From contig JBDKRA010000045.1 of NCBI GenBank assembly GCA_039683615.1, forward strand, positions 133,704 through 197,703: a stretch of DNA of 64,000 bases, read 5' to 3'. Every line of letters starts with the position of its first letter. The stretch's first letter is position 1. Position numbers and translations under genes: made by a program. The notes below the pieces were generated by a model. It saw nothing but the letters and a program-made list of their open reading frames with translations, ran no database searches and had not been told where the DNA came from. The DNA comes from Phycisphaerae bacterium. Lineage in GTDB: Bacteria > Planctomycetota > Phycisphaerae > SM23-33. Shown one piece after another: positions 3,043-41,229 of the stretch.

Positions 3043-3122
3043 GCCACAGAGATCACAGAGAACGCAGAGAAGGAATGAAAAACTCTCTTTGTTTTCTCTG
3101 AGTTCTCTGTGATCTCTGTGGC
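3043..3122. repeat. 29-bp inverted repeat (CCACAGAG-type hairpin) between pyrF and the kinase-like gene
   Basis: gccacagagatcacagagaacgcagagaa ... ttctctgagttctctgtgatctctgtggc, with one mismatch and a 22-nt loop. Confidence 0.75.
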
Positions 3123-5094: not shown

Positions 5095-6774
5095 TTGACG
5101 CACCCTATGCAATCGCCTATCATTGCGGCACAAATAAGGAGTCGGGATGGCCAGCCTCAGGAGGAACCCAAGCTTGGAATCGGCCTGCCTGCCGCTGCCG
5201 CGGAGCGCGCAGCCATGACAGAACCGTCCCTGGCCCAGAGCCGGCCGAACATCCTGATGATATTGGCCGACGACCTGTCCTATCGCGACCTGGGGTGCTT
5301 CGGCCAGCGGCAGTTCGACACGCCGGTCCTCGACGGGCTTTGCAGGCGAGGGCTGAAGTTCACGCAGGCCTACAGCGGCTCGCCCGAGTGCGCCCCCGCC
5401 CGGGCCAGCCTCATGACCGGCATGCACATGGGCCACTGCCGCGTCCGCACCAACGCGTCCGCCCGCGGGCAGGACCACCTTGAGAGGGCCGATGTGACGA
5501 TCGCCCAGACACTCAAGGCCGCCGGATATGCCACGTGCATGGTCGGCAAGTGGGGCATCGGCCTGCCGGGCACGGACGGGGCGCCGGAGAAGAAAGGTTT
5601 CGACGTCGCGTATGGGTTCTACGACCAGGCCAGCGCCCACACCTACTACCCGCATTACCTCTACGAGAACGGCCGGCCGGCGCCGATCCGCGGCAACTAC
5701 GGCTTCGACATGGACCATGCCTATCGCCACAACGGCGACGGGGAAGACAAGATACTCAACGCGTACGATGCCGCGGGCAAGCTGATCCCGCGCGGCGTCG
5801 CCAACGCGACCGCGGCACAGAATTCCGAGGACCTCTGCTATCAGCGGGCGATGGCGTTTCTGGACGCCACGGCCCGAGGCCAGGCGCCCTTCTTCCTCTA
5901 CTACGCCACTCAGATTCCGCACGGTCCGCTGATCACGCCGGACCTGGGGCGTTACCGGGACAAGCCCTGGCCGCAGAAGAACCGCGAGTGGGCGGCGATG
6001 ATCGACCACCTCGACCGCCACGTCGGCGGGCTGCTGGACACGCTCGCCGCGCAGGGGCGGCTGGACAACACGCTGGTGATCTTCGCCAGCGACAACGGCT
6101 ATTCGCATTGGGGCTACATGGGCCGACCGCGCTACGACGACGACCCGCTCTTTCACAACAAAGGCCCGTGGAAGGGCGGCAAGTTCATCTCCTGGGAAGG
6201 CGGCGTGCGCGTGCCGATGTTCATCACCTGGCCGGGGCGCGTCGCCCCCGGCACGACGGAGAACCTCACCGCACTGTACGATCTGCCGGCGACGCTGGCG
6301 GAACTGGCCGGCATACAGGAACCGCCCGCCACCGATGGCATCAGCATCGTGCCGCTGCTGCAAGGGCGACCCGACCGGCAGAAGGCGCACGAGTTTCTGT
6401 ACTGGGAAAGCGGCACGCACGCCCCGCACGCCCAGGCTGTCCGCATGGGCCGCTGGTTTGCCTGGCGCGAGCACCCGGACAACCCCGTGCTGCTTTGGGA
6501 CACGATCGACGATGTAGCGTCGCAGCGCGACGTGGCTGCGGCGCATCCGGACCTGGTGAATAAGGCCCTGGAGATCTTCCGCAGCCAGCACGTCGACAGC
6601 CGGTGGTACCTCAACCCCGGCCAGTCGGCCGCGACGTTCGAGGCCAAGAAGGCCCTCGCCAAGGCCGAAGGCACTATGCAGATCGACACGCGCGCCAACA
6701 GCGACTATCGCGGCGACGCCAACGCCCCGGCCTGGCCCAAGCCCCCGCGAGTGGACGGGGCGGTTCCCCCCTGA
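5095..6774 (+). CDS. Cys-type sulfatase (arylsulfatase family)
   Basis: NILMILADDL, sulfatase signature CAPARASLMTGMHMGH (C-x-P-x-R), and GKWGIG. No obvious signal peptide. Alternative start 5215 (MTEPS). Confidence 0.75.
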   Translation: MTHPMQSPIIAAQIRSRDGQPQEEPKLGIGLPAAAAERAAMTEPSLAQSRPNILMILADDLSYRDLGCFGQRQFDTPVLDGLCRRGLKFTQAYSGSPECAPARASLMTGMHMGHCRVRTNASARGQDHLERADVTIAQTLKAAGYATCMVGKWGIGLPGTDGAPEKKGFDVAYGFYDQASAHTYYPHYLYENGRPAPIRGNYGFDMDHAYRHNGDGEDKILNAYDAAGKLIPRGVANATAAQNSEDLCYQRAMAFLDATARGQAPFFLYYATQIPHGPLITPDLGRYRDKPWPQKNREWAAMIDHLDRHVGGLLDTLAAQGRLDNTLVIFASDNGYSHWGYMGRPRYDDDPLFHNKGPWKGGKFISWEGGVRVPMFITWPGRVAPGTTENLTALYDLPATLAELAGIQEPPATDGISIVPLLQGRPDRQKAHEFLYWESGTHAPHAQAVRMGRWFAWREHPDNPVLLWDTIDDVASQRDVAAAHPDLVNKALEIFRSQHVDSRWYLNPGQSAATFEAKKALAKAEGTMQIDTRANSDYRGDANAPAWPKPPRVDGAVPP

Positions 6775-6781
6775 GGCTGTC

Positions 6782-7654
6782 ATGCTGATCAACTGCTATT
6801 ACTATGCGCCGCATAATCACTGCCTGCTCCGGCGGCATATCGAGGCCGACCTGGAACAGATGAAATCCATCGGCACGCACGCCGTGTCGGTCTGCGTGCA
6901 GGAAGAGCAACTGACCAACTGGCACCACAAGCGGCTGGAGAACTTCATTCGCCAGGCCCATGGCTGCGGCCTGCAGGTGCATGCCGTGCCCAACCGCTGG
7001 GGCGGTCTGACGGCCGGCTGGCTTGACGGCTTTTCAAGCTGGACACTGGAGCATCGCGACCTGCCCATGGCCGGTCAGGAGCAGCAGGGCTGCTGCGACC
7101 CGGCCCGGCCTGAGCTGCGACGGCACTACGAAGAGACGCTGCGGCTGATGCTCACGATGTTTGAGTTCGACGGCTTGATCTGGGACGAGCCTCGCCCGCC
7201 GACGCAGTCGGTGATCGAGTTTCTCGACGAGATGAGCGCCCTGGCCAAGAGCCTGCGCCCGGCCCTGACGGTCAGCATGTTCGCCGAAGCCGGCGCCCTG
7301 CACCTGGCGGAGGTTTTCGCCCGCACGCGGCACATCGACTACCTCGGCGCCGACGGCCACCTGCGAGACCAGACGCACCAGATGCACCGCATGAAGAACA
7401 CGATCTTCCAGACTCACGCGGTCTTTCATCCGGTCTTGTCGGCCGCAGGCAAGAAGACCCTGTTCCTCCTGGAGGCCCAGCGCCACCGAAACGAGGACCT
7501 GGCCAACTACCTGTCCGTGGTCGACCGCGCCTTCGCCCTGCCGATGGACCACCTGATGTACTACTTCTCCGCGCACGAGATGTCGCTTGAGAATGAAGAG
7601 CAATTCAACCGCGCTACCTGGCAAGCCGTCTCTCACGCGGCAACCGTCACGTGA
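6782..7654 (+). CDS. hypothetical protein (possible TIM-barrel glycosidase-like), co-oriented and adjacent to the sulfatase
   Basis: 290-aa ORF starting 8 nt after the sulfatase stop. No motif I can name with confidence. Confidence 0.35.
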   Translation: MLINCYYYAPHNHCLLRRHIEADLEQMKSIGTHAVSVCVQEEQLTNWHHKRLENFIRQAHGCGLQVHAVPNRWGGLTAGWLDGFSSWTLEHRDLPMAGQEQQGCCDPARPELRRHYEETLRLMLTMFEFDGLIWDEPRPPTQSVIEFLDEMSALAKSLRPALTVSMFAEAGALHLAEVFARTRHIDYLGADGHLRDQTHQMHRMKNTIFQTHAVFHPVLSAAGKKTLFLLEAQRHRNEDLANYLSVVDRAFALPMDHLMYYFSAHEMSLENEEQFNRATWQAVSHAATVT

Positions 7655-8605: not shown

Positions 8606-8658
8606 GGCTTCAATATCCAATATGCGATATGCAATATCCACCAAAAACACGTACTCAG

Positions 8659-8740
8659 ACCTCGGGCTCCAGACTTCGGGCGCTCCCCGCAGCCACTGGC
8701 GGGCCTTAGGCCTGAGGTCCGAAGTCTGAGGTCCGAGGCC
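8659..8740. repeat. inverted repeat (CCTCGG-N-CAGACTTCGG type) in the tyrA/accA divergent region
   Basis: gacctcgggctccagacttcggg ... gaggtccgaagtctgaggtccgagg. Confidence 0.55.
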
Positions 8741-8863
8741 TGACGCCTGAAGCCGCCGCCGCGGCCGGATTTCGCTTGATTGCCCGCCCCGCGTGCGATA
8801 CGTTGAGGGGCAGGAAAATGGACCAGGACGCTCAGGGCGTCCTTTTTAGTAGCGGGTTTTCGC

Positions 8864-9865
8864 ATGGCTGACAATGACGGAATCGCCGGCGGCTACCAGT
8901 TGCCTTTCGAGAGGCCCATTCTCCGTCTGCACAAGCAGATCGAAGAGCTCGAGGCCGCCCAGGCCAAGTCCGGCCGCGATTACGTTTCCGAGATCCACCA
9001 GATCCGCGCCCAGCGCACGGGGCTGCTGCGCAAGACTTACGAAGCCTTGACGGCGTGGGAAACGGTGCAGGTGGCCCGCCACCCCGCCCGCCCGCTGGCC
9101 AAAGACTACATCGCCCAGATCGTCAAGAACTTCGTCGAGCTTCATGGCGACCGCCGCTTCGCTGACGACAAGGCCATCATCGCGGGCATCGGCTCGATCG
9201 GCACGGAGAAGGCCGTCATCATCGCCCAGCAAAAGGGCCGCGACACCAAGGAAAAGGTCGCCTGCAACTTCGGTTGTGCGCATCCGGAGGGCTTCCGCAA
9301 GGCCCTTCGCGTGATGCAACTGGCCCAGAAGTTCCACCTGCCGGTGGTGACGATGGTCGACACGCAGGGCGCCTATCCGGGCGTGGGCTCGGAGGAGCGC
9401 GGGGTGGCCGAGGCCATCGCCCGCAACCTGCTGGAGATGAGCCGCCTGGCCACGCCCATCGTTTGCGTGGTCATCGGCGAGGGCGGCAGCGGCGGCGCCC
9501 TTGGCGTGGCCGTCGGCGACCGCATCGCCATGCTCCGCTTCGCCTATTATTCCGTCATCTCGCCCGAGGGCTGCGCGAGCATCCTGTGGCGCACCGGCGA
9601 AAAGGCCCCCGAGGCCGCCGAGGCCCTCAAGCTCACCGCCCCCCAGCTCAAAGAGCTCGACGTGATCGACGACATCATCCCCGAGCCCCTGGGGGCCGCC
9701 CATCGCGACCCCGTCGAGGCGGCCGGTCACCTGGAGCGATACCTCGTCAAGAGCCTGCGCGAGCTCAAGCGGCTGACGCCCCAGACGCTCCTGGCCCAGC
9801 GCTACGCCCGCTGGCGCCGCATGGGCAAGGTGATGTACCTGACGCCGCAGTCAAGTCAGTTGTGA
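8864..9865 (+). CDS. accA: acetyl-CoA carboxylase carboxyltransferase subunit alpha
   Basis: 333 aa. LDFEKPI-like N-terminus, IAGIGSIG, VTMVDTQGAYPGVGSEERG and VVIGEGGSGGALG are diagnostic AccA motifs. Confidence 0.85.
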   Translation: MADNDGIAGGYQLPFERPILRLHKQIEELEAAQAKSGRDYVSEIHQIRAQRTGLLRKTYEALTAWETVQVARHPARPLAKDYIAQIVKNFVELHGDRRFADDKAIIAGIGSIGTEKAVIIAQQKGRDTKEKVACNFGCAHPEGFRKALRVMQLAQKFHLPVVTMVDTQGAYPGVGSEERGVAEAIARNLLEMSRLATPIVCVVIGEGGSGGALGVAVGDRIAMLRFAYYSVISPEGCASILWRTGEKAPEAAEALKLTAPQLKELDVIDDIIPEPLGAAHRDPVEAAGHLERYLVKSLRELKRLTPQTLLAQRYARWRRMGKVMYLTPQSSQL

Positions 9866-9887
9866 GTTGTGAGTTGTGAGTGGTGAG
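9862..9887. repeat. tandem heptamer repeat (GTGAGTT)x3 plus one variant, directly after the accA stop
   Basis: gtgagttgtgagttgtgagtggtgag. Confidence 0.8.
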
Positions 9888-9899
9888 CAATACAACTCA

Positions 9900-9993
9900 C
9901 CACAGAGGCTCAGAGAGAAACGAGGTAGAAGAACAGAGCCTGATTCCTGCTTTTGTTCTCGTCCTTGCCTCAGCGACCTCTGTGCCTCTGTGG
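9900..9993. repeat. CCACAGAG-type inverted repeat downstream of accA
   Basis: ccacagaggctcagagag ... cctctgtgcctctgtgg. The same motif recurs at 30966-30990. Confidence 0.6.
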
Positions 9994-10013
9994 TGATCCT
10001 TTCTGTCCCTGGC

Positions 10014-10051
10014 CTTCATTCGTCCCCATTCGTGTCATTCGTGTTCTCTCC
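10014..10051. repeat. CACGAATG-type element copy overlapping the PEP-CTERM gene stop codon
   Basis: cattcgtccccattcgtgtcattcgtgttctctcc. The TGA stop and last five codons of the PEP-CTERM gene lie inside it. Confidence 0.75.
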
Positions 10052-16140: not shown

Positions 16141-17238
16141 ATGGCCGATGCCAATTCATGCCGAGACCCGATCTGCCTGCGAATTGCCCAGGTTCGCGCC
16201 GAATCCATGGGTCCTCGCGGTAAAGCTCGATTTGCCAAGGCCTTGTGCCTATCGCCGAGCACGTATGAATACTACGAGCGGTCGCGCGTGCCGCCGGCTT
16301 CGGTGCTGGTCAAGATCGCCCAGGTAGCGGGGGTAGACCTTCGGTGGCTGCTGACGGGCGAAGGGTCCGCTGCCGCAGCGGCACAGGCGGCCACAAACCA
16401 CCCCGCCCTGCAGCGAGCCGCCGCCCTGATAGGCGATTACCCTCATGCCGCGGGACCGCTGGCGGCGTTTCTGGACCTGCTGGCTGCCGCGATGGAGTTT
16501 CCGCAGAAGGAAGACGCCGGCGCGACAGAAGGCGCCAAGTCGCAATCGCCGGGCCGAATAGTCGCCCCAGCAGAAGGTTCTCCGCAAGTGGCGAATGCTA
16601 TCGCGGATCTTGTCGCTGAGGCGATTCCTGTTGCGGGGGACGAAACAATGAGCGTGGAGAGGATTGCGACTCTGCCCGCCGGTTCGGCGTTCAAGGACGT
16701 CCCCGCTCGGTCGTGGGTTCCCATCCTGGGACGCAGCGCCGCCGGCGTTCCGCAGTTCTGGGACGGGCGCGACCGTGCCGCCGGCGTTACCACGCTGAGC
16801 GACCTGATCGAGCGCCACGCGAAGGCTCCGGCAGTGATACACGAAGCCTCGACGCGCTGGGCTGATTCGCCGGCCGCCCCACAGACGGTGCAGATCATCA
16901 CGCTGACCGCCCCTGCCGACGAGGTCTCGCAGTTTGTGGCCGCCGCGGACATCAAGGCCCGCTATAGCGACGCCTTCGCCGTTCGCATCGATGGCGATTC
17001 GATGTCCCCCGACATTCGCCACGGCGATCTGGTGGTGCTGAGCCCGACGGAGCCGGCCCGGGACGGCAAGGCCGCCATCGTGCAACTCGATGGACAGATC
17101 GGCGTGACGTGCAAGCTCTACCGCCGCAGCGGCCTGAGCGTTCATCTGATCCCCATCAACGAACGCGTGCCCCACACGGTGGTAGCCGCCGAAGCGGTGC
17201 AATGGGCTCTGCGTGTTCTGGCGCTGGTGCGAGCGTAA
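16141..17238 (+). CDS. LexA/phage CI-like repressor (XRE-type HTH plus S24 peptidase domain)
   Basis: N-terminus FAKALCLSPSTYEYYERSRVPPASVLVKIAQVAGVDLRWLLTGEG is an XRE-type HTH. C-terminus IDGDSMSPDIRHGDLVVL...VTCKLY carries the S24 Ser/Lys dyad context. An Ala/Pro-rich linker of about 190 aa separates them. ATG at 16141 follows a roughly 600-bp AT-rich upstream region. The track start at 15718 is rejected. Confidence 0.6.
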   Translation: MADANSCRDPICLRIAQVRAESMGPRGKARFAKALCLSPSTYEYYERSRVPPASVLVKIAQVAGVDLRWLLTGEGSAAAAAQAATNHPALQRAAALIGDYPHAAGPLAAFLDLLAAAMEFPQKEDAGATEGAKSQSPGRIVAPAEGSPQVANAIADLVAEAIPVAGDETMSVERIATLPAGSAFKDVPARSWVPILGRSAAGVPQFWDGRDRAAGVTTLSDLIERHAKAPAVIHEASTRWADSPAAPQTVQIITLTAPADEVSQFVAAADIKARYSDAFAVRIDGDSMSPDIRHGDLVVLSPTEPARDGKAAIVQLDGQIGVTCKLYRRSGLSVHLIPINERVPHTVVAAEAVQWALRVLALVRA

Positions 17239-17243
17239 GAAAG

Positions 17244-17288
17244 AAGGACCCAAAGGACGACAAGGACGACAAGGACCGCAAGGACAGC
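17244..17288. repeat. tandem 9-mer repeat (AAGGACNNC)x5 in a convergent intergenic region
   Basis: aaggaccca aaggacgac aaggacgac aaggaccgc aaggacagc. Confidence 0.8.
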
Positions 17289-17323
17289 TGATTCAGTCTC
17301 CAGAAACCTTACAGTCCGCTTGG

Positions 17324-20453: not shown

Positions 20454-20520
20454 AACCAGTAGCCTGTTGGGAATCGGCAATGTTCTTCCCGGCTACTGGC
20501 TACCGGCTACCGGCTACTTC
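20454..20520. repeat. GGCTACC/GGCTACT heptad-based inverted repeat overlapping a stop codon
   Basis: aaccagtagcc ... ggctactggctaccggctaccggctacttc. The stop of the 20500..21387 gene (complement of 20500-20502) lies inside. Confidence 0.65.
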
Positions 20521-21387
20521 TTCACCAATGGCAGCAAGCTGCTCAAGATAGACCGGGTCGATCAGTCCATTCGTCAGCGGAGGAACGTCCCATGTTACGA
20601 TGCCGCCGCTGCGGAGGAGATTGGCGGTCAGATCGACAACGGTCTGCGTGTCGTATCGCGGGTTGTTGGGGCGCGACAGCGAGGGTCCCCAGTTGAATCC
20701 CAGGAATGAGAGCATGTGCCATTGCAGGTCTTTGTCCGCCCAGCGACCCTGGCATCGGGCCTCAGGCGGGTACGGAGTGTCGCCGGCAGTGTAGTTCTCG
20801 TAGATCGAGTTCCGCTGGAACCCGTGCGGTTTGTTGAACGCCAGCAGGGCCTCGGCGTTGCCGGCCCGGCACGCGCGGGCGATGCGGCCGTTGATCGCCT
20901 CGTTGCCCTCGTTGCCGTCGATCCACCATCCGCGCACGGACTTGCCCCAGCGCAGCGAGAGTTCCTCCATCGTGTCGGTCCACCACGTCGGGACGCGGGG
21001 TTCGTCGCCTTGGGGTTCCTTGACGGCCGCGGGCGTGCCGTACGTGACGTACGCCATCAGCGTCAGTCGCTTCTTGTCCAGCGCCTCGGCCACGTCGGCA
21101 AGCAGGTCTCGCCGCGTGCATGCGGGGCGCTCGACGCGGGCGAATCGCTCGAACACGACGCTAGGCCCATTCAGTGGCGGCCACTGGGCCACCGTCAGCA
21201 GCAGATAGCCCGCCCCCACGTCGGCAAGTTGCCCGGCCAGCGCGTCGGCGTCGAAGGTATCGACGATCTCGTTCCACTGCCGCGGCGAGGCAACATTCAT
21301 GTACCGGCTGCCCGAGACGTAGTGGAACATCACGCCCCAGGCGCTCTTGAAGAGCCAATCGGTCTGATGCGAAGCGTTGTCGGTCAT
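20500..21387 (-). CDS. putative glycoside-hydrolase-like TIM-barrel protein (DUF4434-like)
   Basis: 295 aa. WWIDGNEGNE and a W/Y-rich composition. GGGAG 9 nt upstream of the ATG. Function assignment is weak. Confidence 0.4.
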   Translation of the reverse strand: MTDNASHQTDWLFKSAWGVMFHYVSGSRYMNVASPRQWNEIVDTFDADALAGQLADVGAGYLLLTVAQWPPLNGPSVVFERFARVERPACTRRDLLADVAEALDKKRLTLMAYVTYGTPAAVKEPQGDEPRVPTWWTDTMEELSLRWGKSVRGWWIDGNEGNEAINGRIARACRAGNAEALLAFNKPHGFQRNSIYENYTAGDTPYPPEARCQGRWADKDLQWHMLSFLGFNWGPSLSRPNNPRYDTQTVVDLTANLLRSGGIVTWDVPPLTNGLIDPVYLEQLAAIGEEVAGSR

Positions 21388-21455
21388 CGCGCATGCTCCC
21401 GCGGGTAAACGTCAGGGGGGTGCATATAATACCACGCGTTCTCCTGCTTTCTGAA

Positions 21456-21563
21456 GAGAACACGAATGACACGAATATAAGCGAATGGGGTCTAAGAAAG
21501 AGGACACTGCAAAGGCCTTTCCCTGTTTCCATTCGCCTCATTCGTGACATTCGTGTTCTCCCC
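21456..21563. repeat. 35-bp inverted-repeat pair of a CACGAATG-type element separated by a 38-bp spacer
   Basis: Forward copy 21456-21490, gagaacacgaatgacacgaatataagcgaatgggg. Reverse copy 21529-21563, ccattcgcctcattcgtgacattcgtgttctcccc. Confidence 0.8.
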
Positions 21564-21600
21564 GGCGGCGAGAAACGCTTCAAGGAATTACGGCAAAGGC

Positions 21601-23064
21601 ATGACACAAACACGCACCATTCGTTTCATTGAACCGATGACGCGGCCGGGGCGCCCTTACAACGCCTGGATCCAGCGCTGGCCGCTGCTGGGCCCGGTGA
21701 CGCTGGCGACGGTCCTCCACGCCAAAGGCTTTGACGCGGGAATCTGCAACGAGAACGTATCGGGCCCTGTCGAGCAGAATGCCCCAGCCTGGGCCGACAT
21801 CCGCAGCGCCGACGTGGTGGGCATCAGCATCATGACGCCCACCGCCAGCCGCGGGTACGCCATCGCCGACCGTCTGCGGGCCGAGGGCTGCCGCGCCACC
21901 ATCGTCCTGGGCGGCGTGCATGCGACGTTCATGTCAACCGAGGCCGCCGCCCACAGCGACGTGGTCGTCCAGGGCGAGGGAGAAAACGTGATCGAGGCCA
22001 TCGCTCGCGGCGACATCACGCACGGCATCGTTCCCTCGACGCCGGTGGCGGACCTGGATTCCATTCCGCCGCTGAACTACTTCCTGATGCACGACTTCGA
22101 GAAGCTCATCGCCACGCAGCGCCGTCGCGAGTTGTACGAACTGCCGATGGCCACGTCGCGCGGCTGTCCGTACGGCTGCACGTATTGCAGCGTGACGCGC
22201 ATGTTCGGGCGTAAAGTCCGGCGCCAGAGCGTCGACAAGGTGATCTCGGACCTGCGACACCATATCGCCCAGGGGTTTGAACGCGTGTTCTTTTACGACG
22301 ACAACTTCCTGGCCGACCGGGCCTGGGCGAGGGAGGTGCTGGAGCGCATGCGCCCGCTGAAGATGCGGTTCAACCTGCAAGGGCGCGTAGACTTTCACTG
22401 GACCAGCCCCGCCCGCAGCGAGCACGACCTGCCGCTGCTGCGGGCCATCCGCCGTGCCGGGCCCAACGTCATCTACGTCGGCTACGAGACCATCGATGAT
22501 GCCACCGCCAAGGCCTGGAACAAGGGCTACCGCGGCAACCGCCCGCTGGCGCAGCGACTGGCCGAGGACACGCGCGCCCTGCACGAGGCGGGGCTGTGGA
22601 TTCACGGCATGTTCGTGCTGGGCCCCCAGCACACGCAGCAGACAGCCGACGGGATCGTGCAATTCGCCCGCAGCCAGCAGATCGAGACCCTTCAGATCAC
22701 GATCCTGACGCCGTTTCCAGGAACGCCGCTACTGGGGCAGATGGCGCCCAACCTGATCGTGCAGGACTTTCCGCGCGACTGGGATTACTTCGACGGAGCG
22801 CACTGCGTATTCGGCAACAGCCGCATGGGCTTCGAGCGAATGCAGCAAGCGGTGTTCGAGGCGCACTGCCGCTTCTACCGCCTGGGCGGCTGGAGCGTGC
22901 GGCGCATCCGGGCGCTGCTGGAAGAACCGCTGAGCCTGCGCGACAAAGTGGCACGCCTCTGGGGCAACGCAAAGATCGCTCGCCCGACGCTGGCCAACTG
23001 GAAGACGGAGATCGCGGCCTACGTCGACTACGTTCGTGCCAAAACGAATCTGGCCAATCTGTGA
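21601..23064 (+). CDS. cobalamin-binding (class B) radical SAM protein
   Basis: N-terminal Rossmann-like B12-binding region (ADVVGISIMTPT...ATIVLGGVHAT). Radical-SAM cluster motif SRGCPYGCTYCSV (CxxxCxxC). 487 aa. AAGG lies before the ATG at 21601. The track ORF starts earlier inside a repeat. Confidence 0.75.
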   Translation: MTQTRTIRFIEPMTRPGRPYNAWIQRWPLLGPVTLATVLHAKGFDAGICNENVSGPVEQNAPAWADIRSADVVGISIMTPTASRGYAIADRLRAEGCRATIVLGGVHATFMSTEAAAHSDVVVQGEGENVIEAIARGDITHGIVPSTPVADLDSIPPLNYFLMHDFEKLIATQRRRELYELPMATSRGCPYGCTYCSVTRMFGRKVRRQSVDKVISDLRHHIAQGFERVFFYDDNFLADRAWAREVLERMRPLKMRFNLQGRVDFHWTSPARSEHDLPLLRAIRRAGPNVIYVGYETIDDATAKAWNKGYRGNRPLAQRLAEDTRALHEAGLWIHGMFVLGPQHTQQTADGIVQFARSQQIETLQITILTPFPGTPLLGQMAPNLIVQDFPRDWDYFDGAHCVFGNSRMGFERMQQAVFEAHCRFYRLGGWSVRRIRALLEEPLSLRDKVARLWGNAKIARPTLANWKTEIAAYVDYVRAKTNLANL

Positions 23065-23096
23065 ACCGACCGGGCCAGGGAAAAGGAATGAGTTAA

Positions 23097-24490
23097 TGTC
23101 AGCGTCCATCAAGAGCGCATACCGTGAGAACCTGTCCGGGTTGGCGTTTCGCGCTGGCGTCAAGGCCGCCGACCTGGCCATCCAAGTCCCCATGCTGCGG
23201 GGGTTCCTGATCGATCGGCTGCTGGAACGCCTGGGGAGGACCTACGACCAGTGCGAAAGCGATCCAAACATCCTGGAGCACGTCAAGTGGTTCGGCCGCC
23301 ACCTCGAAACGTTCCTGCGGCGGTTGCTGAACGAACGCCCCTCGGCCGCCCGGGCCATCCTGCGCTTCCTGGCGACGTGGGCGACGGACCTGCGCCGCCG
23401 CACCGATCGCAGCGATGTCGGGCGCGTCGCGCCGTGCACGGTGGTGATCGAGCCGACCGACCGCTGCAATCTGTCGTGCCCGGGCTGTTACGCCAAGAGC
23501 ACCGCCGACGGCGCCGACCTCACCTACGAGCAATTGTGCGGGATCGTCGAACAGGTGATCGAGATGGGCGTCACGCTGTTCACCGTCTCCGGTGGCGAGC
23601 CTTTTCTGCGAGAAACAACCGAGCGGGTGCTCACGCGGCTGGCGTTGCGCCACCCGGACCGGGGGTTTCTGACGTACACCAACGGCACGATGATCGACGA
23701 GGACATCGCCGACCGCCTGGCGGCCGTGGGCAACATCTTTCCCGCCATCAGCGTCGAGGGCTTCGAGCACCAGACCAACCGGCGTCGCGGCAGAGGCGTG
23801 TATGAGCAGAACCGCCGCGTGCGCCAGATGCTCTCCGACCGCGGGGTCATGTGCGGGTTCTCGGCCACCATGACACGCGAGAACGCCGAATCGATCTGCA
23901 CCGACGAGTTCATCGAGCTGCGAATCGCCGAGGGGGACATGTTCGGATGGTTCTTCCTGCTCCAGCCCATCGGGCGGGCGCCCCGGGCGGACCTGATGGT
24001 GACCGCCGATCAGCGGGCGCTGATGCGCGAGACGATCTACCGCTGGCGCCGCGAAGACCGTCCCATCTTCCTGGGCGACTTCTGGAACGACGGCCACCTC
24101 AGTGGCGGGTGCATCGGCGCGCGGCTGTACTTCCATATCTACGCCAATGGCGATATCAGCCCCTGCGTGTTCGCCCCCATCGCCGGCGAGAACATCTTCG
24201 ATATCATCGCCGGTCGCAGCCAATTCAAGAGCCTCGACGACTACGTGCAGAACAGCCCGCTGTTCAAGGCGTACCGTCATGAACAGGCCGGCGTGACCGA
24301 TCGAAACCGCCCCTGCATGTTGATCGATAATCCGCAGGCGTTCCAGCGCATCCGCTGCACCGAGAACTGCCGCGCGGGCAAGAACTTCCCGCCGGGCTAC
24401 GCCGACGGCGAAATCGCCGAAACGATCAAACAGGTTGCGCAGCAGTGGCAGGAGAAATGCACGCAGCTACCACCCGTGATACAAAAGTAG
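23097..24490 (+). CDS. radical SAM/SPASM-domain maturase with N-terminal (RRE-like) extension, sactisynthase-like architecture
   Basis: CxxxCxxC (EPTDRCNLSCPGCY) lies at residues 124-131, after a roughly 120-aa helical N-terminal domain. The C-terminus is Cys-rich (GGCIGARLY...SPCVF...RPCMLIDNP...IRCTENCRAG), typical of a SPASM twitch/auxiliary-cluster domain. AAGGAA 9 nt upstream. A 32-nt gap after the upstream rSAM gene indicates an operon. Confidence 0.75.
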
Positions 24491-29411: not shown

Positions 29412-30824
29412 CTAGGGCAACATGCCGTTGTATGGCCGCCCGGCCACGAGGTTCCCGTCCTGGACAAACCCCTCGGGGCGGCTGCTGAGCGTCTCGATCA
29501 TCCGAGTGCGCCACTGCGCCAGGGCCGGCGATCGGTCACTCGAAAGATCGTGCAGTTCCCGCGGATCGGTCTGCAGATCGAACAGTTGTTCGCTGCCGTC
29601 TTGTGGACGCCAGATGTACTTACAGCGCCCGTCGGTGAGCATGTGAAATGCCTGTCGGGCGCTGTAACAGGGGGCGTGCTCGCCGTGCAGCACGTCGCGC
29701 ACGCGGGCGTTCGGCCGGCCCCGGAGCACGCCGACGAGGCTGCGCCCGTCGATGCCGACCGGGCAGTCGAGGCCTGCCAGCTCCAGCACCGTGGGCATGA
29801 GGTCTTCCAGGCAGACCGGCTGGTCGCACACCGCCCCGCGCGCCAGGGACAGCTTGCTCGATCCGCAGATCAGCATCGGGACGGCGGCGGAGCCCTCGTA
29901 GGGCTCGCACTTGCGGAACATGTGGTGGTCGCCGAGCAACTCGCCGTGGTCGGAGGTAAAGATGATGACCCAAGGCCGCGCCGCGGCGTGGCTCTTGCCC
30001 ATGAAGTCCTGCATGAGCCAGTAGATCTGGTCGTCGATGTGGTTGATCAGGCCGAAGTACCCCGCCTGGGCGCTGCGCAGCGCCTCGCCGGCGAGGTTGA
30101 CGTAGTGCGAGTCGATGCCCGCGCCCAGGCCGTCGTTGGGCGGCGGGCTGGCCCAGTCGCCGATGGCCGCCGGCGGCAGCGGCATGCGCAGATAGCGTTC
30201 CATGTAGAACGCCGGCGGGATCAGCGGCGGATGCGGCGCGTAGAACGAGCTGGTCAGAAAGAGCGGGCTGTCGCCATCATAGGCGGCCAGATAGTCGCGC
30301 GTCTTGCGGGCAACCCACGTGGTCGGGTGCAGGCGCTCGTCGAGATGGAACGGCCGCGCGGTCCAGCCGTTGTAGCTCATACCGGCCGCCGCCAGGCCGC
30401 CGGCGCCGGGGGCGCCTTGCTCGATGGCGATGGCAAGGTCGTCGTCATCTACATAAGACGAGCCGTGCGTGCGGGACTGGTAGCCGTAGTCCTTCTCGCT
30501 CGGGTGCTGGTGCATGTTGCGCCCGATGAGGGCGGTGCGGTATCCCGCATCGGCCAGCAGTTGCGGCAGCACCGGTCCGGTGGTCTCGTTGCCGCCGACA
30601 AAACCAACCATCCCATGCGTCGCAGGAAACTTGCCCGTCAGCAGACTTCGCCGCGCGGGGATGCACGAGGGGCAGGTCGAGTACGCGCGGCGAAAGAACG
30701 TGCCCTGCCCGCCGATCCAGTCGATGTTAGGCGTCAGCACGGCCGGGTGCCTCGCCAGCGAAAGACAATCCGCCCGCATCTGGTCGGGCATGATCAGCAG
30801 GATGTTCGGACGTGTGTCGCTCAT
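29412..30824 (-). CDS. Cys-type sulfatase
   Basis: MSDTRPNILLIMPDQMRAD, signature CIPARRSLLTGKFP, FTSDHGE. ATG at 30824; the track N-terminus up to 30911 translates a repeat element. Confidence 0.75.
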   Translation of the reverse strand: MSDTRPNILLIMPDQMRADCLSLARHPAVLTPNIDWIGGQGTFFRRAYSTCPSCIPARRSLLTGKFPATHGMVGFVGGNETTGPVLPQLLADAGYRTALIGRNMHQHPSEKDYGYQSRTHGSSYVDDDDLAIAIEQGAPGAGGLAAAGMSYNGWTARPFHLDERLHPTTWVARKTRDYLAAYDGDSPLFLTSSFYAPHPPLIPPAFYMERYLRMPLPPAAIGDWASPPPNDGLGAGIDSHYVNLAGEALRSAQAGYFGLINHIDDQIYWLMQDFMGKSHAAARPWVIIFTSDHGELLGDHHMFRKCEPYEGSAAVPMLICGSSKLSLARGAVCDQPVCLEDLMPTVLELAGLDCPVGIDGRSLVGVLRGRPNARVRDVLHGEHAPCYSARQAFHMLTDGRCKYIWRPQDGSEQLFDLQTDPRELHDLSSDRSPALAQWRTRMIETLSSRPEGFVQDGNLVAGRPYNGMLP

Positions 30825-30840: not shown

Positions 30841-30870
30841 GGGGAGAACACGAATGTCACGAATAAAGAC
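30841..30870. repeat. CACGAATG-type element copy 17-46 nt upstream of the sulfatase start codon
   Basis: ggggagaacacgaatgtcacgaataaagac. Same orientation relative to the downstream gene as the 21529-21563 copy. Confidence 0.75.
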
Positions 30871-32261: not shown

Positions 32262-32276
32262 GGTTGCCGTTTTGTG

Positions 32277-32355
32277 GCATGGCCGTCTCGGCCATGCGTT
32301 CCACGGGCGTCTCGCCCGTGGTTCAGGTCAGGGAGCATGGGCGAGACGCCCATGC
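32277..32355. repeat. three tandem REP-like palindromes of the same family, immediately upstream of proA
   Basis: ggcatggccgtctcggccatgc, cacgggcgtctcgcccgtg, gcatgggcgagacgcccatgc. Confidence 0.75.
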
Positions 32356-32370
32356 CACGATTATCTCGCG

Positions 32371-39445: not shown

Positions 39446-39490
39446 AAAAGCCCCCCACAGACAGGGGGTCAATTATACACGGCAGTGGGA

Positions 39491-39555
39491 GCAGTAGCCA
39501 GTAGCCAGTAGTCGAGGATTCCCTCCGGGTACCGGCTACTGGCTACCGGCTACTC
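39491..39555. repeat. GGCTAC heptad hairpin overlapping the recO stop codon
   Basis: gcagtagccagtagccagtag ... ctactggctaccggctactc. Confidence 0.7.
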
Positions 39556-40315
39556 TTCCCACCACATGCCTTGCCATTTTGGGCCAATGATTGATCTGCT
39601 GGGCGATGTGGTAGCACAGGAGGCGATTGACTTTTCGGGCTTGGGGTTCTTCCAGGGCAGGGCGTTTGGTGCTGCGGCTGGCGGTCAGGGCGGCGATGCC
39701 GGCCAGGGCGGGTGCGTCTACCGCAATGGCTTCCTTGGCCGTCATTCGGCAGCGGGTGCAGATGAGCCCGCCCATCGTGGAGCTGAAGAAGACTTCCTGC
39801 CGACCTTTGGGCGCTGGCGCTGCGGCGATCAGCGGGGTCTGGCAGCCCTGGCAGAGCCGCAGATCGCCCAGCAGGCCCAGGTGGCCGAGCAATCGCCATT
39901 GAAAGAACGCCAGCACGGCCTGCACCGGCGCGTCGGCCTGGCCGAGGCGCGCCAGGGCGTTGTGCAGAAGGTCGAAGACCTCCACGTGCACGTCTGCCTC
40001 GCTGACCGTGGCCGCGACGATCTCGATCATGTACAGCCCCGCGTTGAGCCGCCGCAGATCCTTGCGCAGGGCCGAATGCGAGTCGCTTTCGGTGTACTCG
40101 ATCAGCGTGGCGAGGCTTTCCCCGCGGCCGGTGGAGTAGATCAGTTCGCCCTCGCTGAACATGTCAACGAGCCCGCCGGACTTGCTCTTGGGCCGCTTGG
40201 TGCCCTTGCCCAGCGCCCGCACGGCCCCGCCCGAGCGCGTGAGGAAATGCAGGACCTGCGAGGTCTCGCTGTAGTCGTAAGCACGCAGGCAGATTGCCAA
40301 CTCGCGGTGGCGCAT
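39536..40315 (-). CDS. recO: DNA repair protein RecO
   Basis: N-terminal OB fold (AICLRAYDYSETSQVLHFLT), zinc-binding CQGC...CTRC. ATG at 40315. Confidence 0.7.
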   Translation of the reverse strand: MRHRELAICLRAYDYSETSQVLHFLTRSGGAVRALGKGTKRPKSKSGGLVDMFSEGELIYSTGRGESLATLIEYTESDSHSALRKDLRRLNAGLYMIEIVAATVSEADVHVEVFDLLHNALARLGQADAPVQAVLAFFQWRLLGHLGLLGDLRLCQGCQTPLIAAAPAPKGRQEVFFSSTMGGLICTRCRMTAKEAIAVDAPALAGIAALTASRSTKRPALEEPQARKVNRLLCYHIAQQINHWPKMARHVVGRVAGSQ

Positions 40316-40346
40316 GCCGAGGATAGTAACCGCTAGCCCGCAAGAA

Positions 40347-40415
40347 CAGTAGCCCGTAGCCGGCAAAAGCATCAGGTTCCGCCTGTTGTCACGGGCTACC
40401 GGCTACCGGCTACTG
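40347..40415. repeat. GGCTAC heptad hairpin between recO start and the histidine-kinase stop codon
   Basis: cagtagcccgtagccgg ... cgggctaccggctaccggctactg. Confidence 0.7.
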
Positions 40416-41229
40416 CTGCTGCTCGCGAGTGCATCGCGCGCACGGGGATGGCCGGTAGAAGCATGCTCATGGCGCAGCCCTTTCCGGGGCGGCTCTCGAC
40501 GGTGATAAAGCCCCCGCTCTGGCGAACGAATCTGCAGACCATCGTCAACCCAAGGCCCGTTCCCTGGCCGGGCGGCTTGGTCGTGAAGAATGGCTGAAAG
40601 AGCTGCCCCAGCGTCTGCTTGTCCATTCCGACGCCGTCGTCCTTGACCGTCAGCATGACGAACCGTCCCGGCTGGGCCGGGGCGTGCCGCTGCGCTTCCT
40701 GGCGGTCCACCAGCACGTGCTGCACGGTGATTCCAACGTTGCCCGACGACGCCACCGCGTCGCGCGCATTCATCAGCAGATTGAGGATCGCCTGCTGGAG
40801 CTGCGCCGGATCGGTCTTGACCCACGCCGGGGCCGGCGAAAGCCGCAGCGACAACGACACGTACTTGCCCAGCATCCGGTCCAGCGCGTCGGCCATCTCC
40901 GTCAGAGACTCCCCCACGTTCACCAGCGCCACTTGGGCAATCTCGCGGCGGCTGGCCTTGAGCAGGCGCTGGCACAGATCGTTCGCGCGGTCGGCGGCCT
41001 GGAGCACCTGCTCGATCAGGCGCCGGTCTTCCTTGTCGCGCCCGCGGCGGCGCATGAGCATCTGCCCGTAGCCGCTGACCAGCGAGAGCTGGTTTCGAAA
41101 ATCATGGGCGACATTGCCCACCAGCAGGCCCATGGCCTCGATCTTCTGCATCTGGAGGAATTGCCGCTGCAGGGTCGCGTCATTGGCCTTGGCGGCGCTG
41201 CTCGGCAGTTGCTGCGATTCGTCCAGCAT
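40396..41229 (-). CDS. soluble sensor histidine kinase (HisKA plus HATPase_c, no sensor domain)
   Basis: H-box VAHDFRNQLSLVSGY, N-box LLMNARDAV, G-boxes DDGVGMD and GTGLGLTMV. Confidence 0.7.
   Translation of the reverse strand: MLDESQQLPSSAAKANDATLQRQFLQMQKIEAMGLLVGNVAHDFRNQLSLVSGYGQMLMRRRGRDKEDRRLIEQVLQAADRANDLCQRLLKASRREIAQVALVNVGESLTEMADALDRMLGKYVSLSLRLSPAPAWVKTDPAQLQQAILNLLMNARDAVASSGNVGITVQHVLVDRQEAQRHAPAQPGRFVMLTVKDDGVGMDKQTLGQLFQPFFTTKPPGQGTGLGLTMVCRFVRQSGGFITVESRPGKGCAMSMLLPAIPVRAMHSRAAAVAGSR

Follow-up and report, generated by a model that had tools for sequence, protein, structure and literature searches.

An inverted pair of heptad arrays between two divergent genes of a Phycisphaerae bacterium probably belongs to a dispersed family of hairpin-forming intergenic repeats

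Does the inverted repeat that separates two divergently transcribed genes of a Phycisphaerae bacterium serve them as a common switch, or is it a repeat that merely lies between them? The question is raised by the divergent intergenic region at positions 21388–21600 (213 nt) of a stretch of 64,000 nt (hereafter, the window; its sequence is identical to part of GCA_021371965.1), located between a minus-strand gene encoding a fucosidase-like protein of 295 aa and a plus-strand pair of radical SAM genes. A previous sequence-only reading had described there a perfect 35-bp inverted pair filling the region, which could be either a bidirectional operator or an insertion similar to miniature inverted-repeat transposable elements (MITEs). 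Our results lead us to conclude, with moderate confidence, that the element at 21456–21560 belongs to a family of intergenic repeats that are dispersed, non-coding, able to form hairpins, and similar to REPINs and MITEs, and that it is not a gene-specific operator. The family spans many uncultured Phycisphaerae and some Bacteroidales. Being a copy of such a dispersed repeat, the element would thus not be a dedicated switch for the radical SAM and fucosidase-like genes.

Analysis of the inverted repeat and of its hairpin fold revealed a 105-bp imperfect palindrome (21456–21560) composed of two inverted arrays of short words and a loop. The left arm (21456–21488, plus strand), which contains an exact match to the 21-mer of the family, presents an outer cap GAGAA followed by the three words CACGAATGA, CACGAATATA, and AGCGAATGG, whereas the reverse complement of the right arm (21529–21560, minus strand), which pairs with it, reads GAGAA followed by CACGAATGT, CACGAATGAG, and GCGAATGG. 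The CGAAT words are found at 21463, 21472, and 21482 in the left arm (spaced by 9 and 10 nt) and at 21531, 21540, and 21549 in the right arm (9 and 9 nt), and the loop between the arms (40 nt, 21489–21528) is not conserved among family members. Without gaps, the core arms 21456–21476 and 21540–21560 (GAGAACACGAATGACACGAAT and ATTCGTGACATTCGTGTTCTC) are complementary at 20 of 21 positions, and if a single 1-nt gap is allowed, 21456–21488 and 21529–21560 match in 29 of 33 columns. On both strands the element is predicted to fold into a single hairpin (−52.7 kcal/mol, z = −6.9 for the plus strand; −58.6 kcal/mol, z = −8.0 for the minus strand). No inverted repeat was detected inside either arm, the arm GAGAACACGAATGACACGAAT being a direct array of words and not a stem-loop, and no terminator-like site was found in the region 21200–21800, nor a U-tract after the stem.

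The inverted repeat between the two divergent genes is real, but it is neither perfect nor 35 bp long. The arms had been placed at 21456–21490 and 21529–21563 with 31 of 35 matching bases; in that register only 11 of 35 positions match, the best ungapped register reaches 22 of 35, and the right arm turns out to be displaced by 3 nt. Similarly, the spacer of 38 bp becomes a loop of 40 nt in the gapped pairing, the element covers 105 of the 213 intergenic nt instead of filling them, and the start codons lie 40 nt away on the radical SAM side and 68 nt away on the fucosidase-like side, in place of about 45 and 80 nt. The three ACGAATG or GCGAATG half-sites described for each arm, 9–10 bp apart, were correct in number and spacing, although the second left word is ACGAATA.

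The window holds further copies of these arms. The 21-mer GAGAACACGAATGWCACGAAT occurs four times in it, compared with 0.00 in 100 shuffled sequences, and two of the occurrences are the arms of the 21456–21560 element. The motif scan located a second copy on the minus strand at 10018–10048 (21-mer at 10028–10048), a lone arm of three words with no CACGAAT partner arm. This arm overlaps the 3′ end of a gene encoding a PEP-CTERM-type protein of 1812 aa and provides its last codons and stop (..R-E-H-E-stop, as read from the sequence), the stop codon falling inside the first word of the arm (10035–10048). The third copy, a lone plus-strand arm of two words at 30844–30864, has its outer end 19 nt upstream of the ATG of the sulfatase gene 29412–30824 (minus strand) and only a degenerate partner (ATTCGTCATTTGT) about 70 nt inward. 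In addition, six of the seven occurrences of CACGAATG in the window lie within arrays.

The motif was also searched in representative genomes (one per species) and, with both spacer bases of the 21-mer freed, in metagenomes. Among the species-representative genomes, 20 loci were detected, 14 of them labelled Phycisphaerae or Planctomycetota and the other six in bins labelled Anaerolineae, Nitrospirota, Zixibacteria, Bacteroidales, and Robiginitalea, whereas at least 120 metagenomic contigs contained the motif. The G+C content of the carrier contigs ranges from about 30 to 70%. The Bacteroidales match is genuine, with a neighbouring protein 83–92% identical to proteins from metagenome-assembled genomes (MAGs) of Bacteroidaceae and Prevotellaceae, and a high-copy variant in another sample lies among housekeeping genes, beside an HU-HIG protein. 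The density of copies is uneven, as the representative MAG E05-017 contains seven exact arms in its whole genome, compared with four arms in the 64-kb window. Among viral contigs there was a single match (IMG/VR contig IMGVR_UViG_3300021431_000209, locus L027; L-numbers denote the fetched loci or contigs carrying arrays or radical SAM orthologues), a lone three-word arm at 7240–7260 between co-directional genes, ending 8 nt before the downstream ATG. In contrast, no blastn match was obtained in the mobile DNA of isolates (72,556 plasmids and 50,697 phages). Three metagenomic matches (L088, L093, and L110) were left out of the family as look-alikes in which the 21-mer belongs to coding tandem repeats for G-E-N-T-N-P-T-N-P (GENTNPTNP).

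No description of the element was found in the literature searched for the arm sequence and for palindromic repeats of Phycisphaerae. Regarding RNA families, only tRNAs reached the gathering score of Rfam 15 in the window and 16 loci, with merely sub-threshold matches to generic microRNA-hairpin models in the region of the element.

A total of 162 arms (148 unique) were collected, 90 of the 162 with an inverted partner, and most paired elements measure 66–143 nt. They follow the pattern [GAGAA](CACGAATNN){2,5}, in which each arm consists of 2–5 heptad words of consensus CACGAAT, most commonly four (three at 21456–21560), with a (GA)GAA cap outside. The words are spaced mainly by 9 nt (range 8–11), and the spacing agreed between the two arms of an element in 48 of 54 comparisons. 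The family has a sharply defined outer boundary: in the 148 unique arms, which begin with GAGAAC, only a weak preference for A was detected at positions −1 and −2 beyond the first G, and their logo includes no tetranucleotide conserved beyond the arm. No common sequence was found in the loops of 81 paired elements, even within one genome, and 58 of the 129 arms with enough sequence lack a partner. In the partner arms, the words are nearly invariant, whereas standard pairing of the 2-nt spacers is limited to about half of the elements. Both spacer nucleotides are complementary in 19 of 70 elements against six expected (permutation p ≤ 5e-5), and the covariation of spacers is weak, being reached by 30 of 500 shuffles. 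As the words are near-invariant while the spacers are free, conservation acts on the words themselves, the arms of one element being correlated.

Genes around the arrays were called with a simple codon-model caller, which reproduced the database gene calls for the window, and the baseline consisted of the intergenic regions of 40 nt or longer from these loci. The elements were found in 55 tandem, 15 divergent, and 12 convergent regions, compared with 262, 95, and 61 in the baseline (chi-square p = 0.62), and 62 arms were oriented towards gene starts and 62 towards gene ends. Many arms lie 0–50 nt from a start or stop codon, including copies 0–40 nt past stop codons, some overlapping them, and several arms located only 4–27 nt from start codons. 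Between the arm end and the start codon, ordinary and unrelated Shine–Dalgarno ribosome-binding sites or promoters were found. The 148 neighbouring proteins matched 182 different Pfam families, none of them more than three times and with no transposase among the 25 most frequent families, and the 20 neighbours checked by hand were housekeeping or catabolic genes, each of a different kind. Arginase, threonine synthase, DnaX, NuoF, rhomboid, TldD, NIF3, GH130, and HerA proteins are among these neighbours. Finally, five loci with orthologues of the radical SAM genes (60–64% identity, the closest available) showed no CACGAAT array upstream of these genes or within 13–21 kb. The enumeration in the window, the representative genomes, and the metagenomes thus yielded many dispersed copies with no bias to promoters, which counts against an operator.

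Some individual contexts can be added. A DeoC-like gene ends in an arm in two related MAGs (L016, 104–124; L002, ~6540–6600), with the endings EHE-stop and QHK-stop, the arms being orthologous and partly degenerate. In L062 (9859–10136), a tRNA-Pro gene (9949–10023) has a word hairpin on either side. Loci L032 (~9350–9396) and L130 (~5630–5710) contain textbook TTGACA-17/18-TAGAAT/TATAAT promoters that end 6 nt before the ATG, which suggests leaderless mRNAs in these low-GC organisms.

The relatedness of copies bears on how they are maintained. In two MAGs with 83% identity over 6.6 kb, the end of the same gene has retained an arm, which is degenerate in one of them; therefore, the element can be old and vertically inherited. 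In addition, L044 contains two 114-nt copies with 96% identity within one genome, sample JAEIGA01 contains a high-copy composite family with a conserved interior, and arms lie at most 200 nt from a contig end in 20 of 63 whole contigs, compared with 10.3 expected (p = 0.003). These duplicates, the composite family, and the enrichment at contig ends point to copying or homogenisation of the repeat. The composite variant (170–340 nt; L040, L047, L071, L081, L087, L100, L104, L133, L143, and others from sample JAEIGA01) has an interior with CCATGCGGGAT.., GCCATCCGGATGGTATTCGTG, and GCGCGACCTTCGGTTCGTG. Its conserved flanks reach past GAGAAC, and it is often located at contig ends, in a low-GC genome with neighbours of Bacteroidota type (HU-HIG).

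The known systems closest to such elements are the REPINs, REP doublets, and BIMEs, which are repetitive extragenic palindromes (REPs) associated with RAYT transposases (PMC3337134, PMC3116915, PMC3733652), the REP unit being an imperfect palindrome of 20–40 bp (stem of 5–13 bp, loop of 2–20 nt) with an unpaired GTAG or CGTC tag (PMC3733652). As in REPINs and BIMEs, two short inverted intergenic units surround a spacer here, with about 100 nt in total and a long hairpin. Further points of likeness are the tens or more copies per genome, the largely vertical inheritance, the absence of target-site duplications, the proximity to gene ends with occasional overlap of coding ends, and the mosaics with other small hairpins. 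However, unlike REPs, the arms of our element are non-palindromic arrays of tandem heptads with no GTAG or CGTC tag; unlike REPINs, neither a RAYT nor another Y1/HUH transposase appears among the 25 commonest neighbour families, nor an arm-gene-arm unit in about 770 kb of flanking DNA; and the CACGAAT core is common to two phyla, whereas REP families are usually specific to a species or genus.

MITEs such as the Correia or NEMIS elements of Neisseria are about 100–150 bp long, have terminal inverted repeats, are located in intergenic regions near genes, and are co-transcribed as hairpins. From general knowledge of them, our element resembles these MITEs in size, terminal inverted repeats with a sharp boundary, intergenic location, and the breaking of assemblies at high copy number. 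It differs in the lack of target-site duplications, in that no autonomous insertion sequence with matching ends was found in the flanking DNA, and in "inverted repeats" that are themselves internally repetitive, with units of 9 nt. The shared interior of MITEs was seen in L044 and in the JAEIGA01 composite family, and not among the copies of the window or of MAG E05-017. The MITE-like or REP-like part of the sequence-only reading thus holds as far as a dispersed intergenic palindrome enriched at contig ends is concerned, and does not extend to the classical features of either class.

Several of our results weigh against a REPIN-like or MITE-like nature of the family. No target-site duplication was detected, as the direct flank identity of 36 well-bounded pairs was at or below expectation for k = 1–8. 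In about 770 kb of flanking DNA, neither an arm-gene-arm unit nor a transposase partner was found, nor any autonomous element or insertion sequence with matching ends, and nothing similar was present in the plasmid or phage collections. No pair of empty and filled sites was found, the only candidate for an orthologous empty site (L081 compared with L133) being ambiguous because the contig ends at the element. The copies in the window have no interior sequence in common, and the same applies to those of MAG E05-017, unlike what would be expected from a recent MITE burst. In addition, the core of 19–21 nt is the same in at least two phyla and across 35–70% G+C, which exceeds what is usual for REPs or MITEs and could reflect a host function. 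Finally, as searches by exact match leave no variation in the query arm, conservation of the words can be judged from partner arms and inner words only.

With these reservations, if the element is a REPIN- or MITE-like repeat, a trans-acting protein would copy it or keep it homogeneous. Such a protein would likely recognise the CACGAAT heptads on their 9-nt period and not base-pairing alone, because the words are letter-perfect, whereas the 2-nt spacers are free and pair in no more than about half of the elements. Mechanistically, this protein could best be compared with ribbon-helix-helix proteins acting on iteron-like operators, such as omega of pSM19035 (WATCACW heptads in direct and inverted arrays), MetJ with its met-boxes, and ParG. 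As in those arrays, 2–10 short words occur in direct and inverted arrangement with a variable number of units, and it is the word that would be recognised rather than a long palindrome. However, the arrays of omega, MetJ, and ParG are contiguous (period of 7–8 bp) and are located at specific promoters or centromeres of one replicon, whereas the CACGAAT words have a period of 9–10 nt with free spacers and are scattered over all types of intergenic region in many genomes.

Other short words offer looser parallels. The STRRs (short tandemly repeated repetitive sequences) of cyanobacteria are perfect head-to-tail heptamers without spacers, whereas the uptake sequences DUS and USS (DNA uptake sequences and uptake signal sequences) are single words found about once per kb, also inside genes, whose inverted pairs double as terminators. 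They have in common with the present family the short conserved intergenic words, the broad taxonomic range, and the frequent inverted pairs able to form hairpins. In contrast to DUS and USS, CACGAATG is essentially confined to arrays (six of its seven occurrences in the window), and a role as an uptake sequence was rejected, as the word is not over-represented outside arrays. An integron attC site was also rejected: the ends GAGAAC...GTTCTC correspond to GTTYYY and not to the GTTRRRY core, and the contexts, as read from the sequence, are not cassette arrays. The same applies to a tiny open reading frame or translational coupling through GGAG-N7-ATGA, as only 33% of the arms have the G of this ATG. 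Finally, none of the consensus sequences that we take to define DnaA-box clusters, LexA/Cheo boxes, and CRP-like or Fur-like sites fits the arms by eye.

Of the explanations that compete with a dispersed REPIN- or MITE-like repeat, the one that survives best assigns the arrays to the host. According to it, the heptads would be bound by a conserved nucleoid-associated or architectural DNA-binding protein, or by an RNA-binding protein, oligomerising along 2–5 sites with a 9-nt period, and the paired arrays would be generic intergenic punctuation (topological or transcriptional insulators, or protection of mRNA 3′ or 5′ ends) and not selfish DNA. We consider this a tentative possibility. It would accommodate words that are letter-perfect while spacers, loops, and flanks are free, a core conserved over contigs of 30–70% G+C in both Phycisphaerae and Bacteroidales, the vertical retention of an arm at an orthologous site, and the lack of both a transposition footprint and a transposase partner. 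It would also fit the frequency of lone arms (58/129), which suggests that a single array may stand alone. On the other hand, no candidate protein was identified, and the arrays show no positional preference relative to genes. The very uneven density of arms, their enrichment at contig ends, and the near-identical copies within one genome resemble the dynamics of repeats and not of fixed sites, and closely related genomes bearing the radical SAM genes lack arrays over 13–21 kb.

A wider form of the same idea, which we hold yet more tentatively, is that the CACGAAT arrays are the cis-sites of an undescribed, widely conserved protein–nucleic-acid system common to Phycisphaerae and Bacteroidota, marking or organising intergenic regions as a genome "punctuation" and not as a selfish repeat, and perhaps including the sibling CACAGAG, CACAGAT, CACAAAG, and CACGGAT arrays found alongside. 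The protein would then oligomerise on heptads 9 nt apart, either on DNA or on the folded transcript.

Selection could instead operate on RNA, the element being maintained as a transcribed stem-loop (bidirectional terminator, stabilising structure at mRNA 3′ ends, or RNase III site) to which the words would be incidental. The folds are indeed very stable on both strands (the mean minimum free energy of 65 family members is −38.7 kcal/mol, in addition to the values given above for our element), the arms are held in register, complementarity of the spacers is above random, many copies follow stop codons closely, and G-U pairs are in excess on the sense strand. Despite this, among the 30 elements between co-directional genes, the difference in stability between sense and antisense strands was not significant (Wilcoxon test on minimum free energy, p = 0.21), and the extra G-U pairs (sense strand in 18 elements, antisense in eight; sign test p = 0.076) are suggestive only. 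Structure by itself would not hold a sequence constant from one phylum to another, and the spacers are unpaired at half of their positions, with weak covariation. An intrinsic terminator was rejected, as neither a U-tract nor a 3′-end bias was found; there is likewise no enrichment in convergent regions, and 15 of 82 elements lie between divergent genes, with no obvious terminator role there. As no Rfam family matched either, we regard selection on a stem-loop as unlikely.

The bidirectional operator, in turn, appears very improbable. It would require a winged-helix or OmpR-type regulator that binds both arms and co-regulates the fucosidase-like gene and the radical SAM operon, perhaps within a sulfated-glycan regulon together with the sulfatase gene 29412–30824. 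In its favour, three of the four arms of the window are directed at starts of genes related to glycans (GH29-like gene, radical SAM pair, and sulfatase), the left arm abuts a promoter-like −35 hexamer, and tandem direct repeats are a classic binding geometry of response regulators. However, the fourth arm covers the stop codon of a gene with no such relation, and arrays elsewhere flank genes as diverse as those listed above, from arginase to HerA, or lie between convergent genes. The period of the words is mostly 9 nt, and not the 10–11 nt typical of OmpR or PhoB sites, whose location is, moreover, confined to promoters of a coherent regulon, in contrast to the 12 convergent regions and the 62:62 orientation of arms found here. 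Arms placed 4–27 nt from start codons leave no room for a promoter. The lack of arrays at the five loci with radical SAM orthologues argues in the same direction, against a required operator, although synteny is not conserved there, so this is a moderately strong test only. In short, contexts at baseline, unrelated neighbours, and radical SAM orthologues without the element leave an operon-specific operator unsupported.

Related candidates were rejected as well. A sulfated-glycan regulon was ruled out by unrelated neighbours in 20 and then 148 other cases, a promoter inside the arm by the lack of TTGACA/TATAAT-compatible geometry, and a fixed distance to the start codon by the lack of a common motif in the cluster at 38–50 nt (15 of 62 arms).

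The least probable explanation, a small RNA gene or stand-alone non-coding RNA with the word hairpin as its conserved part, finds a basis in a hairpin-containing module of about 250 nt in L012, L031, and L097, but this module is not present at the window copies, Rfam gave no match, the arms lack a conserved flanking promoter or terminator, and elements overlap coding ends or sit 4–27 nt from start codons. The module itself (approximately L012 4330–4600, L031 6160–6400, and L097 9190–9420) is conserved at 72–83% identity between flanking genes that cannot be aligned, and is made up of 70 nt upstream, a word hairpin that includes a small inner stem showing covariation, and another hairpin. It could represent either a mobile unit of larger size or a gene for a non-coding RNA.

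Returning to the locus, the genes on either side are known from profile matches and gene calls. The minus-strand gene (20500–21387; 295 aa) presents a weak match to Alpha_L_fucos (GH29-like; E = 1.7e-6, 28.1 bits, cut-off 25.2), and the plus-strand unit of two genes (21601–24490) encodes a B12-binding radical SAM protein (21601–23064) and a radical SAM protein with a Fer4_12 domain (23096–24490). A single promoter-like site was found, against 0.2 expected, a sigma-70-like match for the fucosidase-like gene on the minus strand (21426–21455; TTCAGA, 18-nt spacer, TATTAT, preceded by TG), based on consensus only. Its −35 hexamer is immediately adjacent to the left arm on its outer side, and the site belongs to the context, outside the repeat. 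The TATAAT-like hexamer described at 21425–21430 is present too, and overlaps this better site on the opposite strand. In addition, a 365-aa protein with HTH_3 and Peptidase_S24 domains (LexA/CI-like) is encoded at 16141–17238, 4 kb away from the element; a similar gene was found near the radical SAM orthologue in L023/L024, and no link to the element was found.

As a repeat copy, the element would at this locus merely lie between two genes of opposite direction, and the promoter-like site of the gene on the left begins right at the outer end of the left arm. With transcription of the radical SAM operon starting upstream of the right arm, the mRNA would carry all or part of a hairpin of −53 to −59 kcal/mol, 40 nt before the start codon, and such a leader hairpin could incidentally alter mRNA stability or insulate the two genes from each other.

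Tandem short words (CACAGAGA, CACAGAGG, CAGTAGC, and others) also build the arms of at least six further intergenic hairpins in the window, and CACAGA-type arrays were the second commonest array word after ACGAAT in the fetched loci. Hairpins built of words may therefore form a broader style, undescribed so far, to which the CACGAAT element would belong. Such hairpins and arrays are located at 3043–3122, 9897–9996, 8655–8743, 39485–39562, 40333–40429, 17239–17323, and 9866–9890. The CACAGAGA hairpin has three words per arm and 97% complementarity, further array words are CACAGAGG, CAGACYTCGG, CAGTAGC heptamers, and GTAGCC, and there are also four direct GACAAGGAC units and three GTTGTGA units. 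A different family is represented by REP-like, G+C-rich palindromes GTGGCATGG(C/G)CGTCTCG(C/G)CCATGCCAC at 2002–2200 and 32262–32370, with two or three per intergenic region. Finally, a mini-hairpin CCCCCTTTG(A/C)AAAAGGGGGAG..AGGGGGATT lies beside or inside CACGAAT elements in the low-GC contigs L042, L068, L082, L096, and L128, as another small dispersed motif.

In conclusion, a tempting but wrong inference, that of a dedicated operator shared by the radical SAM operon and the fucosidase-like gene, can be set aside. In its place stands a family of small intergenic palindromes of unusual build, with arms of tandem heptads on a 9-nt period, described by no curated RNA family and by none of the papers searched. 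For those annotating MAGs of Phycisphaerae and Bacteroidales, contig ends, 5′ leaders, and gene ends are places where these elements are to be expected, and at gene ends they can contribute the stop codon. Should there be a protein partner, the family would provide a clean, sequence-defined handle to find it in these poorly studied lineages.

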